Positions 729 through 8,307 of a DNA stretch of 9,242 nt are shown one piece after another. The notes below the pieces were generated by a model that was given only the letters and a program-made list of their open reading frames with translations, ran no database searches and was not told where the DNA came from. The translations under genes and the position numbers were made by a program. Origin of the DNA: a virus (taxonomy: Duplodnaviria > Heunggongvirae > Uroviricota > Caudoviricetes); the IMG/VR virus record IMGVR_UViG_2529293240_000018, one strand, 5' to 3'. Numbering within the stretch: position 1 is the first letter of the stretch; each line of letters begins with the position of its first letter.

Positions 729-1634
729 CTATATTTCCAGACATCTGTTATCACTTAACCCATTACAAGCCCGCTGCCGCAGATATTCCCGTGGCGAGCG
801 ATAACCCAGCGCACTATGCGGATGCCATTCGTTATAATGCTCGAACGCCTCTGCAAGGTTCTTTGCTGCCGTTAACCCGTCTGGTTTGGGCATGATACTG
901 ATGTAGTCACGCTTTATCGTTTTCACGAAGCTCTCTGCTATTCCGTTACTCTCCGGACTCCGCACCGCCGTGTTCTTCGGTTCAAGTCCCAACATCCGGG
1001 CGAACTGGCGTGTTTCATTAGCCCGGTAGCATGAACCATTATCCGTCAGCCACTCCACTGGAGACGACGGAAGATCGTTGCCGAAGCGGCGTTCCACCGC
1101 TCCCAGCATGACGTCCTGTACTGTTTCACTGTTGAAGCCGCCGGTAGTCACCGCCCAGTGCAGTGCCTCACGATCACAGCAGTCCAGCGCGAACGTGACA
1201 CGCAGTCTCTCTCCGTTATCACAGCAGAACTCGAACCCGTCAGAGCACCATCGCTGATTGCTTTCTTTCACGGCTACTCTGCCTGTATGTGCCCGTTTCG
1301 ATGGCGGTACAGCAGGTTTTCGCTCAAGCAACAGCGCATTCTGGCGCATGATCCGGTAAACACGTTTGGCATTGATCGCAGGCATACCATCAAGTTCTGC
1401 CTGTCTGCGAAGCAGCGCCCATACCCGACGATAACCATACGTGGGCAGCTCTCCGATAACATGGTGTATACGGAGAAGCACATCCGTATCATCAGTGTGA
1501 CGACTGCGGCGGCCATCCATCCAGTCATCGGTTCGTCTGAGAATGACGTGCAACTGCGCACGCGACACCCGGAGACAACGGCTGACTAAGCTTACTCCCC
1601 ATCCCCGGGCAATAAGGGCGCGTGCGCTATCCAC
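729..1634 (-). CDS. insD: IS2 OrfB (InsD), DDE transposase catalytic part, 301 aa
   Basis: Translation (GTG start) [30 protein letters not shown]... matches IS2 InsD. It overlaps the end of orfA in the -1 frame. Confidence 0.9.
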
Positions 1635-1957
1635 TTTTTTGCCCGTCCATATTCAACGGCTTCTTTGAGGAGTTCATTTTCCATCGTTTTCTTGCCGAGC
1701 AGGCGCTGGAGTTCTTTAATCTGCTTCATGGCGGCAGCAAGTTCAGAGGCAGGAACAACCTGTTCTCCGGCGGCCACAGCAGTAAGACTTCCTTCCTGGT
1801 ATTGCTTACGCCAGAGAAATAACTGGCTGGCTGCTACACCATGTTGCCGGGCAACGAGGGAGACCGTCATCCCCGGTTCAAAGCTCTGCTGAACAATTGC
1901 GATCTTTTCCTGTGTGGTACGCCGTCTGCGTTTCTCCGGCCCTAAGACATCAATCAT
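1592..1957 (-). CDS. insC: IS2 OrfA (InsC), 121 aa, HTH/leucine-zipper regulator
   Basis: Translation [56 protein letters not shown]...[20 protein letters not shown] is IS2 InsC as I recall it. Confidence 0.9.
1634..1640 (-). promoter_or_regulatory. IS2 programmed -1 ribosomal frameshift heptamer A AAA AAG in the orfA/orfB overlap
   Basis: Minus strand reads GGGCAAAAAAGTGG; in the orfA frame this is gcA AAA AAG tgg. IS3-family elements use this motif to make the OrfAB transposase (established knowledge). Confidence 0.55.
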
Positions 1958-2031: not shown

Positions 2032-2916
2032 TCAGGGGGCCAGTCTAGCAACAGTGAACGTTGTGTTGCCATTCATATCAATACCCGGCGGAGCCTTACG
2101 CCAGATGGCCGCCGCGATATCTGCCGGGCTGCCGCCGTACACGCCAACATAAAGCGAACCGGGTGTTAATGGATACTGACTGACTCCGGCTTTTTGTTCT
2201 GTTTTTTTCGGATTATGGGTGACGTAAACATCCACCACGTTTTCCACCGTGGAGAGTATTTCACCCCGGATGGCTTCCAGAATATTCCGGGCATTACGGG
2301 CAACTGAATTACGTCGGCGGTTTTCAAAGTCCGCACGGGTTTCCTCATCGCTGCCCGGCACACCGGCACTGGCGTTAGTGACACCTGACCAGCCAGGTAT
2401 TGCCTTATAAATTTTATTCAGCGTCCCCACAGGACAGCCGACGGGGCCGGTGGACAAATTCAGAAATACCGCATCAACCTGCCCTGATGCGCCGATAGTG
2501 ACGTCTGACTGACTGACATACTTATAACCGGCCTCATCCTGCGCCATACTGCCCGCCGGGATCAGCGTGCCAACCAGCCCGGTACAGGTCGCTGTTACTG
2601 TCGTACCTGTGGCCCCGCGGCGCTCCAGGAAATAAATCCTGCCTATTGCATCCTGAAAGCGACCACTGGAAAAGTCAGGGTTGATCTGGTTAACGATATA
2701 CAGCAACTGATCGTTTTTATCCGCAATAATGGCGCTTTCGCTGGATGCAAGTTGTCCCTGCGGACTGCTCAGACTGGTACTCATGGCCCCGCCCAGCGCC
2801 GCCGAAAAATCAGCAAGCCTGCCGCTCAGAATATCCGCTTCATCCGGCACATTCAGCCCGCTATCCGAAATCTGTACAGCGGGCACTGCGGTAGAAAAAG
2901 ATTTATTTTCACTCAT
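2032..2916 (-). pseudogene. Phage baseplate J-like protein (Mu gp47 / P2 gpJ-like), C-terminally truncated at the IS2 junction
   Basis: 294-aa ORF; the last 4 codons (RLAP) and the stop come from the IS2 terminus (2032..2047). Position downstream of gpV-like and gp46-like genes, with a 4-bp start/stop overlap with the upstream gene. Internal segment ETRADFENRRRNSVARNARNILEAIRGEILSTVENVVDVYVTHNP loosely resembles the gpJ core. Family call is by synteny and weak similarity. Confidence 0.5.
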
Positions 2917-3269
2917 AGCAGTACCGTAAAAATGTCATTATTGGTATCTGTAATACGCAGCACACCTGTTACTGTCCGGGTTTGATCAGCTGTGACCAGG
3001 CAGACAGCGGCGCTCACGGTCGGCAGTTTAAGTGCTTCCTGTTGCAGAGTGGCATTCACCAGTTGTGTGCCGGGCCAGTGTCCGAGGATGCGTGGCCAGT
3101 AAGGTATGCCAGCCGTTGAGTCGTACCAGCACTCCCCCAGAAAAGTACTGCACGCACACGCCACATCCTGAGCTACCGCATGGGGATTATCAGTAATGGC
3201 AAGATTTCCGGTATCATCAAGCAGGATATCCCATGTCCCGGTGTCAAGAAGAAGTGATCGTGACTGCAT
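2913..3269 (-). CDS. Phage baseplate protein, Mu gp46-like by position and size (118 aa)
   Basis: Intact ORF between the gpV-like and J-like genes in the canonical hub-V-gp46-gp47 order; no diagnostic motif recognised. Confidence 0.4.
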   Translation of the reverse strand: MQSRSLLLDTGTWDILLDDTGNLAITDNPHAVAQDVACACSTFLGECWYDSTAGIPYWPRILGHWPGTQLVNATLQQEALKLPTVSAAVCLVTADQTRTVTGVLRITDTNNDIFTVLL

Positions 3270-3281
3270 GTTTTCTCCTGT

Positions 3282-3939
3282 TTACCGGGGTCCCTGCGTG
3301 GTTGAGCCGCCGGACTCAACGCCGCCGTGAACGTGGTTTCCAAAATCAATACCCCCGATGTTCGAACCGCCGGAAAGCCTGGACTGCCCGGTAACGTCAA
3401 GCCCCTTACTGACGGCGGTATCGCCGTTCAGCGCAATTTGTGGTGAATTAACGGTGAAGCTTTTCGGCGCATTAATCACACCCTCAGGCGCGGATATCTC
3501 CACTTTCCAGGGAGATACAATCCGTATCTGGTTGTCATCAAATACCACAAACTGGACGGGATCACCGTTGAGCACGCCACCCAGCCAGATGGCATCAGCA
3601 TAATTATGGGTACGCTTTGATCCCGGCATCGCAGCCTGACGCGTGGCTTTTACCGCACTGATATCCCGATCGCAGATGGCAAGAAAACCGATATCCCCCA
3701 CATGTGGCGGCATAATCACCGCATTACCGCCCCCCTGTAGTCGCCATACGGGAATGTTATAAATCACCTCATGTTCAACCGGGGAACCGTCTGCTGCAAC
3801 GCCCATTACCATCGGTCGGGCCTCAATAAATCCCTCTTCCACGGCTACCACCCGTCCCAGAGTGATAAACGCATGACGTCCGAGAAACTGCCGCAGCATA
3901 AAGTCCTGTGCATTGATTTCGCTGTTCACGTCTGTCGGG

Positions 3940-3959
<20 letters not shown>
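3282..3959 (-). CDS. Phage baseplate assembly protein V / central spike (Mu gp45 / P2 gpV-like), 225 aa
   Basis: C-terminal glycine-rich apex motif ...GGSNIGGIDFGNHVHGGVESGGSTTQGPR resembles the P2 gpV C-terminus (..HTHKHPGDSGGTTGSP..). Overlaps the upstream gene by 20 bp, typical of a phage morphogenesis operon. Confidence 0.65.
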
Positions 3960-5616
<1,657 letters not shown>

Positions 5617-5685
5617 TGGAGCACCTGTGTTGTTCTGAGGTGAGCATATCACCTCTGTTCAGGTGGCCAAATTCAGTGTGCCACT

Positions 5686-5967
5686 TCACTTTAGCTCACC
5701 GTTTTGCAGGAGAATGTCGAGCACATCCATCTGGTCGATTTCAACCAATCTACGAAGAACATAAGCGGCATCTATACCTACCTCTTCGTTTCGCTCGGCT
5801 TTAAGCTCAGCAATGCGCTTTGCGATATTAGCTTTTATTAGGTTTTTGCATCCTTGTACGGCGGCAGAATCCTCACTGTAACCCGCCCTGATGGCTGCTT
5901 GCGTGGCATTGAGATCTTTCAGGTACTCACGGGCAAACAGCTCTTGTTTGTCGGTGAGCTTTGCCAT
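5686..5967 (-). pseudogene. Phage terminase small subunit (TerS), N-terminal 93 aa, C-terminally truncated by IS911
   Basis: MAKLTDKQELFAREYLKDLNATQAAIRAGYSEDSAAVQGCKNLIKANIAKRIAELKAERNEEVGIDAAYVLRRL... has the typical small-terminase N-terminal motif (MAKLT.KQE.F..EYL.D.NATQAAIRAGYS). The stop codon is the TGA of the IS911 terminus. A GGAG Shine-Dalgarno sits about 10 nt upstream of the ATG. Confidence 0.75.
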
Positions 5968-6098
5968 TATTTGTGCTCCGTTTATCCGTTAAAAGGGATA
6001 TCAGTTAAGTTATCCCGTGTAGGGTATAAGCCATTATCAAGCCCACCAGTAGATGGACTTTGTAATGAAGAGCCGTTGTGAAAGTAGCTCTCAGGTTG

Positions 6099-6302
6099 TC
6101 ATTTTTCCCTTTTCTGCCTACCTGCCCACTGTTTTGCAATGTACAGGCAGTCATCGAAAACTCGGCCTTTTCTGCTGGCTTGTGAACAACGGCGGTAATG
6201 CTCCACCGCCATGTCAGCGCCAGTCATAGCCGCGTTCTGGTCGTACCCAAGCTTTATTAACTCGGTTGTTACATTTTTATGTATGAAATCAATCGGAGTC
6301 AT
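6099..6302 (-). CDS. Hypothetical small phage protein, 67 aa
   Basis: Open frame MTPIDFIHKNVTTELIKLGYDQNAAMTGADMAVEHYRRCSQASRKGRVFDDCLYIAKQWAGRQKREK, co-oriented with and upstream of terS. Its start codon overlaps the stop of the upstream small ORF (ATGA). No family recognised. Confidence 0.45.
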   Translation of the reverse strand: MTPIDFIHKNVTTELIKLGYDQNAAMTGADMAVEHYRRCSQASRKGRVFDDCLYIAKQWAGRQKREK

Positions 6303-6415
6303 GCTGGTTTACCATCAGGGAAATCCCCCATGTCACATAGCTTGAACTGAATCAGATCCTTCACAAGCTGCTCAGCCTTTTTAATGGCCTTCTTCTCTTT
6401 CTTCCGACGAGTCAT
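6299..6415 (-). CDS. Small lysine-rich ORF, 38 aa (below the ORF-track cutoff), possibly 5'-truncated by IS600
   Basis: ATG at 6413-6415 (minus): MTRRKKEKKAIKKAEQLVKDLIQFKLCDMGDFPDGKPA, with its TGA overlapping the ATG of the 67-aa ORF. The frame stays open upstream into the IS600 end 10 bp away, so the true N-terminus may be lost. Confidence 0.3.
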   Translation of the reverse strand: MTRRKKEKKAIKKAEQLVKDLIQFKLCDMGDFPDGKPA

Positions 6416-6489
6416 GAGAGCGCTATGAGGTAGCCTGAGTTTAACGGACACTCCTTCCTGAAATAGAATGGCATCAGAAGGAGCTAATA

Positions 6490-6792
6490 ATGAGCAGAAA
6501 AACCCAACGTTACTCTAAAGAGTTCAAAGCCGAAGCTGTCAGAACGGTTCTTGAAAATCAACTTTCGATCAGTGAAGGCGCTTCCCGATTATCCCTTCCT
6601 GAAGGCACTTTAGGACAATGGGTTACCGCCGCAAGAAAAGGGCTCGGTACTCCTGGTTCCCGCACGGTGGCTGAACTGGAATCTGAAATTCTGCAACTGC
6701 GTAAGGCGTTAAATGAAGCTCGCCTTGAGCGAGATATATTAAAAAAAGCAACAGCGTATTTTGCACAGGAGTCGCTGAAAAATACGCGTTAA
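6490..6792 (+). CDS. IS600 OrfA (HTH/leucine-zipper regulator), 100 aa
   Basis: MSRKTQRYSKEFKAEAVRTVLENQLSISEGASRLSLPEGTLGQWVTAARKG...DILKKATAYFAQESLKNTR; intact. Confidence 0.85.
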   Translation: MSRKTQRYSKEFKAEAVRTVLENQLSISEGASRLSLPEGTLGQWVTAARKGLGTPGSRTVAELESEILQLRKALNEARLERDILKKATAYFAQESLKNTR

Positions 6793-7668
6793 TCGAACAA
6801 TGGCGACAACAATTTCCCATTGAAGCGATGTGTCAGGTATTTGGTGTATCCAGGAGCGGTTATTACAACTGGGTACAGCATGAACCCTCAGACAGAAACA
6901 AAGTGATGAGCGGCTAAAACTGGAGATTAAGGTGGCACATATCCGCACTCGCGAAACATATGGAACCCGGCGGCTCCAGACGGAGCTGGCAGAGAATGGC
7001 ATCATCGTTGGTCGTGACCGACTGGCACGTCTTCGTAAGGAGCTAAGGCTACGCTGTAAGCAGAAACGCAAGTTCAGAGCGACTACGAACCCGAACCACA
7101 ATCTGCCAGTTGCGCCAAATCTGCTGAACCAGACGTTCGCTCCTACAGCACCAAATCAGGTCTGGGTGGCGGACCAAATCAGGTCTGGGTGGCGGACCTG
7201 ACGTATGTTGCCACACAGGAGGGATGGTTGTACCTCGCTGGCATCAAAGATGTTTATACGTGCGAAATTGTCGGCTACGCCATGGGAGAGCGCATGATAA
7301 AAGAGCTGACAGGTAAAGCCCTGTTTATGGCGCTCAGGAGCCAGCGCCCACCTGCCGGGCTAATCCACCACTCTGATCGAGGTTCACAGTACTGCGCATA
7401 CGATTACCGGGTCATACAGGAGCAGTCTGGTCTGAAAACATCAATGTCGCGTAAAGGTAACTGTTACGACAACGCTCCGATGGAAAGCTTCTGGGGAACG
7501 CTGAAAAATGAGAGCCTGAGCCACTATCGTTTTAATAACCGGGATGAAGCCATCTCAGTAATACGGGAATACATTGAGATTTTCTACAATCGTCAGCGTC
7601 GTCACTCTCGTCTGGGGAATATCTCCCCGGCAGCCTTCAGGGAAAAATATCATCAGATGGCTGCTTAA
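6741..7668 (+). pseudogene. IS600 OrfB transposase, disrupted by a 1-bp deletion and a 23-bp tandem duplication
   Basis: OrfB homology runs through three frames: frame 0 from the A7 slippery run at 6741-6747 (..FPIEAMCQVFGVSRSGYYNWVQHEPSDR); frame 2 from about 6896 (KQSDERLKLEIKVAHIRTRETYG...APNQVWVAD); frame 1 after the duplication (LTYVATQEGWLYLAGIKD...HSDRGSQY...[18 protein letters not shown]...). Confidence 0.8.
7151..7196 (+). repeat. Perfect 23-bp tandem duplication (2 copies of CCAAATCAGGTCTGGGTGGCGGA) inside IS600 orfB
   Basis: Read directly: 7151-7173 and 7174-7196 are identical. It duplicates the codons for PNQVWVAD and shifts the frame. Confidence 0.9.
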
Positions 7669-7691
7669 AAAAGAACAAATGGTAGTGTCCG

Positions 7692-8307
7692 CTATTGCCA
7701 GTACACCTCATAACCGCGTTCGATCGGTTTAGGGGGAAGTGGTGCCTGAACGATGACATCACACCGGCTACAGGCCAGTTTGGGACGTATGGTTTCGATA
7801 ACTTTAAAGGCGGTATTAATGATATCCAGTTGCTCTGAGATTGTTTCCCCCATTTCTTTCAGAACACCTCCACAGGCCGGGCAACTGGTTTCAGCAGGCA
7901 GAAGGCGATGTGTCTCCCGGGGAAGTTCTGCCGGCAGCGGTTTTCGTGAAGATTTTCGTCCCGGGAATTCAGGCTTACTGGCGATCGGGTTTTCTGACGG
8001 GGGACTGGTGTCAGGTGAATCTGTGACTGACGATGCATCTTCCAGAAGATTTCTGGCTGTGTTCAGCCGGTTTTCCAGTTCCGACAGTCGTTTTTCTGCC
8101 TGTCGGATCTGATTTTCAAGCTTATGACGCTTTTTCTCTGAACTCTGGCCGAACAACATACGACGCAACCTGTCGAGTTGCGCTTTTCAGCCGTTCAATT
8201 TCCTGCTCATAGCCCGCGACCTGACAGGCATACTGTCGAAGCCGACTCTGTTGCTTACGCAACATGGCTTTAAGCAGCTCAATATCATCGGGGAGTTCAT
8301 TGTTCAT
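7692..8307 (-). pseudogene. IS66-family transposase TnpC, N-terminal ~205 codons only, with an internal frameshift
   Basis: The 61-aa (8122..8307) and 158-aa (7692..8168) ORFs are two frames of one gene: MNNELPDDIELLKAMLRKQQ...EQEIERLK | AQLDRLRRMLFGQSSEKKRHKLENQ...CPACGG.... Removing one base from the T4 run at 8184-8187 (plus) rejoins them. Homology ends at 7711; the last codons come from IS600. Confidence 0.75.

Follow-up and report, generated by a model that had tools for sequence, protein, structure and literature searches.

The window (the whole stretch of 9,242 nt that was analysed) carries on its minus strand an open reading frame of 67 codons, ORF67, and directly upstream of it a frame from which the earlier note had read a lysine-rich protein of 38 aa. 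The two frames overlap in an ATGA stop/start junction, as that note had described with the strand left unstated; the strand is minus (Table 1). Downstream and in the same orientation lies a terS gene that is cut short, so the earlier placement of terS behind the two ORFs was correct. The segment is bounded by an IS911 copy on the terS side and by an IS600 copy on the other.

Table 1. Features around ORF67, with positions in the 9,242-nt window.
Feature	Position	Strand	Basis
IS911 copy	4440-5688		RefSeq copies annotated IS911, 99% identical
terS, cut short by IS911	5967..5686	minus	Terminase_2 match
Folding intergenic element between ORF67 and terS	5968..6098	minus	folding energy, conservation
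ORF67, intact 67-aa gene	6302..6099	minus	ORF list; PHROG 4439 match
Stop codon TGA of the regulator remnant	6299-6301	minus	sequence reading
ATGA stop/start overlap of regulator gene and ORF67	6299-6302	minus	sequence reading and relatives
3' remnant of the 198-aa Rha-like regulator gene, S158 to A198 (last 41 native codons)	6424..6302	minus	tblastn
IS600 terminal sequence, 9 foreign codons and GTG start	6451..6426	minus	comparison of the junction with L001
IS600 copy cutting the regulator gene	6426..7710	plus	RefSeq copies 98% identical

The 38-aa peptide is exactly MTRRKKEKKAIKKAEQLVKDLIQFKLCDMGDFPDGKPA, read from an ATG at 6415 in a frame ending at 6299 (6415..6299, minus strand). Its frame is open into the IS600 end 10 bp upstream of this ATG, as had been noticed before, and continues for 12 codons beyond it, up to a GTG at 6451. 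A start at this GTG gives an ORF of 50 aa, the first nine codons of which lie in the terminal repeat of the insertion sequence starting at 6426. The suspicion that a longer gene ends in the 38-aa frame was confirmed when tblastn against the window recovered a 198-aa gene of intact prophages behind it: residues 158-198 of the intact protein are encoded with 41 of 41 residues identical, and the ATG at 6415 is the internal Met161 codon of that gene. DNA homology begins at the IS600 junction. Positions 4001-4738 of L001, an intact E. coli prophage, correspond to 6425-5689 of the window, which is exactly the whole stretch between the two insertion sequences.

Codon 157 of the regulator gene is interrupted by IS600 after its second base, and the first 156 codons together with two bases of codon 157 are lost. 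No further piece of the regulator was found in the window by tblastn of the intact protein, residues 1-157 being missing, and the window lacks the 470 bp of its 5' part altogether. An exact-match search with the IS600/regulator junction gave no hit among species-representative genomes. By eye, the ATG at 6415 is preceded by no Shine-Dalgarno sequence, and the 38-aa peptide had no family match in Pfam or PHROGs. The hybrid ORF of 50 aa consists of MSVKLRLPH, derived from IS600, followed by the native SALM…, and is evidently a chance product of the IS600 junction. By the same comparison, the 38-aa ORF is a 3' gene remnant and no gene of its own; the IS600 cut left an internal Met161 codon in place, and hence an illusory ORF. 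Fragmentation of a known gene, which had been named as the outcome that would overturn the idea of a small-gene pair, was found for the 38-aa ORF; ORF67 is not such a fragment.

The insertion sequence next to the remnant is indeed IS600: RefSeq copies that share 98% identity with it carry the annotation "IS3-like element IS600 family transposase". The copy spans 1285 bp, against the usual 1264 bp of IS600, and two ORFs (6932-7201 and 7189-7668) make up its split orfB. Its 3-bp flanks, cta and taa, are mismatched, and no target duplication is present. An ORF on its far flank (7692-8168, minus strand) is presumably a fragment of an IS66-family transposase. The missing 470 bp of the regulator gene, the unmatched flanks, and this IS66-family-like far flank together suggest a later IS-mediated rearrangement. 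On the other side, terS matches Terminase_2 (E 2.8e-27, profile positions 1-87 of 141) and is cut after codon 93 of 184 by IS911, its last codon and stop (5686-5688) being already IS911 sequence; homology to the intact prophage ends there at 5689. From the reading of ORFs, positions 1-804 are taken to be an IS150-type orfB interrupted by an IS2-type element (729-1957, minus strand), and 2032-4455 (minus strand) presumably hold phage baseplate/tail-type genes, seemingly from another prophage than the terS fragment. If these readings hold, the window would be a patchwork of insertion sequences and prophage scraps.

In intact prophages, the gene order is holin, lysozyme, Rz, the 198-aa Rha-like gene, ORF67, a structured spacer of about 130 nt, terS (184 aa), terL, and portal. 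The regulator gene is thus located between the lysis genes and terS; in the intact prophage a terminator-like hairpin follows Rz, and no consensus promoter was found before the regulator gene. A 456-bp query spanning both ORFs was found over 80% or more of its length in 17 complete E. coli genomes, six of which reached at least 99%. The exact 67-aa protein adjoins an intact 198-aa gene and a 184-aa terS in at least six places. L102, a second prophage, in strain CFSAN029787, is 99.5% identical to the window across all 737 bp.

One record names the 198-aa gene "Rha family transcriptional regulator", others call it "hypothetical protein", and its homologue in Erwinia phage Midgardsormr38 is annotated as Rha family transcriptional regulator, too. 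The name comes from RefSeq/GenBank annotation and not from Pfam. The intact L001 regulator had no Pfam match at E≤0.01, and the Erwinia homologue scored 20.4 bits against Phage_pRha (PF09669), below the cut-off of 29.9. The L001 regulator matched phrog_63 (anti-repressor Ant) with E 6.9e-11 and phrog_4936 (transcriptional regulator) with E 2.5e-10. On the basis of these two matches and of Bro-N sister proteins (8 of 8) with the same C-terminal domain, the intact regulator is classified as Rha/Bro-N/ANT antirepressor-like in the broad sense. The rha gene of P22 and phi80 inhibits phage growth in IHF-deficient hosts.

ORF67 matches PHROG 4439 with E 5e-34 and 117 bits, residues 1-66 aligning to profile positions 1-66 of 74, and by this match is a full-length member of that family, the function of which is uncharacterised. 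The earlier statement that neither ORF belongs to a recognisable family holds for Pfam, and fails for ORF67 because of PHROG 4439; no Pfam, NCBIfam, or PADLOC family matched ORF67. A profile search in 5.8 billion proteins recovered 459 relatives, every one a "hypothetical" protein from an Enterobacterales prophage. In an exhaustive HMMER search of 1.84 billion cluster representatives, 186 clusters matched, nearly all of them stand-alone proteins of 50-110 aa; a few of the proteins are extended at the N-terminus and have no recognisable domain. Compared with the L038 copy, ORF67 differs at 7, 2, and 30 sites in the first, second, and third codon position, respectively, with 26 synonymous and 6 non-synonymous differences. 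This third-position bias and the 459 homologues make ORF67 more than a chance frame, and by these measures it is a real, intact gene of a conserved phage family under purifying selection. The ORF67 in the window is three codons shorter than the L001 copy, and its A-run is one base shorter; as the 67-aa form is present in intact prophages as well, the shorter form is not a sign of decay.

The earlier note had placed one of the two ORFs below the usual annotation cutoffs. This does not apply to the 38-aa ORF, which is no gene, and it does apply to ORF67, which PGAP leaves un-annotated in three RefSeq E. coli loci examined (L001, 4124-4336; L002; L102). A conserved 67-aa gene under purifying selection is skipped there, and this is an annotation gap. 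The record of Erwinia phage Midgardsormr38 annotates the ORF67 homologue as ORF92.

The AlphaFold2 model of ORF67, computed from an alignment of 63 sequences, has a mean pLDDT of 84.6 and pTM of 0.71, with helices at residues 3-18, 22-38, and 42-62 and a basic tail behind them. The three-helix bundle is predicted with confidence, the basic tail forming the C-terminus. Its conserved residues cluster at the end of helix 2, in the loop, and at the start of helix 3 (HYRRxSQASxKG…FDDCL). The hairpin of helices 1 and 2 in the ORF67 profile repeatedly matches very long TPR-type proteins (P0162, P0182, P0197, and others). These TPR-type repeats (…LGRREDALAAAQEAVDLYRALAQ…) match profile positions 10-42 and were rejected as relatives; the similarity is probably that of analogous helical hairpins and not homology.

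To describe the neighbourhood of the family, 80 viral contigs encoding ORF67 relatives were fetched, of which 79 loci were evaluable, and the 45 upstream codons were counted by alignment score. The tail of the regulator is encoded directly upstream of ORF67 in 67 of these 79 loci and in 30 of the 37 distinct ORF67 variants, down to 52% identity. Among the viral loci that carry the tail and have an intact junction, each distinct one inspected has the ATGA overlap, as do L001, L003, and L015. Two types of upstream protein occur. All eight proteins of one type match Bro-N, and four of seven of the other match Phage_pRha weakly; both types have a common C-terminal domain of about 77 aa (…GSxLMxxRK…LxQ…DLGDFPDG), with the invariant positions S, G..GS, RK, K, L.Q, and D.G.F..G. 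In Stx-type prophages, the gene before an ORF67 relative of 76% identity encodes a Bro-N protein of 190 aa, and the two overlap by the same 4 nt. The C-terminal halves of this Bro-N protein and of the Rha-like protein align with E 1e-17, and the ends of the two are near-identical (…DLGDFPDGESA and …DMGDFPDGKPA, respectively).

The domain of about 77 aa matched no Pfam family, and a homologue search with it returned short fragments only. Its resemblance to ORF11CD3 is faint (hhalign probability 5.8%). The codons of the tail are also biased in the third position, and the domain, too, is under purifying selection. Its structure was modelled with low confidence (pLDDT 61.7, pTM 0.27) as long helices with no compact fold, and in that model the part of the tail left in the window is one basic helix and the DMGDFPDG tail. 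A loose helical tail would agree with a need for a partner or for oligomerisation, as far as such a weak model may be followed.

A second subfamily of ORF67, of about 85 aa, has no tail neighbour and lies in early regions, after a CII-family gene (Proteus phage) or near RusA (Klebsiella siphophages). In Proteus phage vB_BPM-V3 (L004, 2691-3258; also L073-L076), the 85-aa protein is encoded directly after a CII-family gene, overlapping it, and before replication genes. In both contexts, the small protein comes after a DNA-binding regulator.

The spacer that separates ORF67 from terS folds strongly, with three hairpins (MFE -35.9 kcal/mol, z -4.9). When aligned with Sf6 and Stx2 phage 1717, it includes the ribosome-binding site and ATG of whichever gene comes next, and for this reason it looks like a mosaic boundary. 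No Rfam family matched over the whole window at gathering thresholds, nor on 5900-6450 at E≤1. About 100 nt at the 3' end of the spacer recur with 90% or higher conservation in 111 phage records (Sf6, Stx2 phage 1717, and mEpX1 among them), where they carry no annotation, and the pairing in the middle hairpin of the spacer is kept with different bases in Sf6. The 456-bp query was matched in 2536 of 5426 E. coli genomes; the listed ones beyond the 17 full-length matches cover the spacer stretch only.

In intact phages, the regulator and ORF67 would be part of the late operon. No obvious ribosome-binding site of its own was seen by eye for ORF67, and reinitiation at the ATGA is therefore probable; ORF67 would be made by termination-reinitiation, and its production would be coupled in this way to that of the Bro-N/Rha-type regulator. 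Among the regulators, the N-terminal DNA-binding domain is swapped (Rha-like or Bro-N), and the C-terminal helical domain ending in DLGDFPDG is always retained directly before ORF67. Because regulators with exchanged heads keep one tail in front of ORF67, its role as a partner of this tail is favoured: ORF67 could be a small partner or modulator acting on or with the C-terminal domain, and the two could form a late-expressed regulatory or antirepressor-type module. That ORF67 acts with or on the regulator tail is the most economical reading of the conserved arrangement. In its stronger form, in which the ORF67 family and the domain of about 77 aa make an obligate, undescribed two-protein module, with coupled translation and with binding to the tail that switches, stabilises, or restrains a late antirepressor-like activity, the proposal is tentative and rather doubtful. 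If it were true, the window would by chance have kept just those parts of the two proteins that interact.

Several observations count against a partnership. Near-identical ORF67 variants occur with different tail types, and no lineage-specific co-variation is visible; the second subfamily lacks the tail, which argues that an ORF67-type protein can work without that domain; and the linkage of tail and ORF67 could be a mere recombination breakpoint in the middle of the regulator gene. ORF67 may be independent of the regulator, as a small protein that serves host takeover or binds the transcription machinery, or as an anti-defence accessory gene, with its position being inherited linkage only; this is possible, if on the unlikely side, and the one tail kept across exchanged heads is what favours the partner reading instead. 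Through its linkage, in many prophages of Enterobacterales, to this shared tail, ORF67 is a concrete candidate partner for Rha/Bro-N regulators, whose mode of action is mostly obscure. No paper on the regulator/ORF67 pair was found in the literature. The module of tail and ORF67 is a modest new observation, while ORF67 itself is a member of a catalogued, uncharacterised family.

For the window itself, the segment 5689-6425 is very probably a 737-bp orphan scrap, bounded by IS911 and IS600, from immediately before the packaging genes of a lambdoid prophage, in which the regulator gene is cut by IS600, terS is cut by IS911, ORF67 is intact, and the whole is likely silent. Neither the DNA-binding domain of the regulator nor the late-gene promoter of the phage is present in the window, a scan for the sigma-70 consensus found no promoter-like site on the minus strand at 5650-6550, and the IS600 transposase genes read away from both ORFs; the fragment is therefore most likely silent and non-functional. 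Weak or read-through transcription of it is possible. As the intact ORF67 does not differ from the protein encoded in intact prophages, and as translation coupled to the hybrid 50-aa ORF is conceivable, one might suppose that the remnant is still expressed, by read-through or from an outward promoter of low strength in the IS600 end, and that only ORF67 retains a domesticated function in the host. This is quite improbable given the minus strand without a promoter-like site and the outward-reading transposase genes; moreover, the flanking genes are destroyed, and near-identity of 99.5% over 737 bp points to recent decay, not retention.

A novel pair of coupled small genes, as the earlier note has it, does not hold. 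Its ATGA overlap is real and conserved, and the frames lie on the same strand, with the overlap kept in relatives; its small upstream partner is the remnant of the 198-aa gene, and the window has no intact upstream gene that would bring ribosomes to the junction, the regulator being cut and no promoter-like site having been found. Open frames and the strongly basic character of the 38-aa peptide, together with the overlap, could speak for a genuine pair of 38 aa and 67 aa, such as a toxin-antitoxin or small regulatory pair, and yet this is very improbable: every intact relative has the 38-aa sequence as residues 161-198 of a protein of 198 aa, and the 38-aa ORF begins at an internal Met 10 bp from the IS600 end with no Shine-Dalgarno sequence visible. 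The toxin-antitoxin candidate was rejected, as neither peptide has a Pfam match related to such systems, the 38-aa peptide lacks any Pfam or PHROGs match, ORF67 and the intact regulator have no PADLOC match, and the upstream ORF is a remnant. A single gene split by a frameshift into the 38-aa and 67-aa parts, for which the abutting of the two frames with a -1 offset could be quoted, is practically out of the question, since relatives with as little as 52% identity, among them L102, Erwinia phage Midgardsormr38, and many viral contigs, have two ORFs joined by the same ATGA, fused-looking cases are rare frameshift variants (L043) only, and ORF67 is modelled as a complete domain from its own Met.

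What had been the sole unassigned coding capacity of the window is resolved as ordinary prophage decay. The result has little weight for the window, where it removes a false small-gene call and leaves prophage decay in an IS-rich genome.

Among known families, ORF67 is similar end to end to PHROG 4439, a family of small stand-alone proteins in Enterobacterales prophages. RMF (PF04957) was rejected as a relative. The likeness is a weak local match of ORF67 residues 29-56 (E 0.029, 14.9 bits against a gathering cut-off of 27.9), the predicted fold and the length differ, and the match is taken as chance. The relatives of the regulator swap N-terminal domains on a common C-terminus, as do proteins of the Rha/Bro-N/KilA-N/ANT group (PF09669, PF02498, PF04383, and PF03374), in which domain shuffling was reportedly described by Iyer et al. 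in 2002. Unlike them, the remnant described here has lost its N-terminal DNA-binding domain entirely. In Stx2 phage 1717 and HK620, the same position between Rz and the packaging genes is occupied by a KilA-N/ORF11CD3 protein and an 85-aa ORF with a 4-nt overlap (L021, 1748-2499, in Stx2 phage 1717; L015, 4734-5554). The 85-aa ORF of Stx2 phage 1717 was rejected as a homologue of ORF67 (hhalign probability 0.5%), and both the N-terminal and the C-terminal domain of its regulator differ from those of the Rha-like regulator, but the pair is followed by the same conserved intergenic boundary sequence as ORF67. The combination of a regulator and a small ORF overlapping it, placed between lysis and packaging genes, may be a cassette design that recurs.
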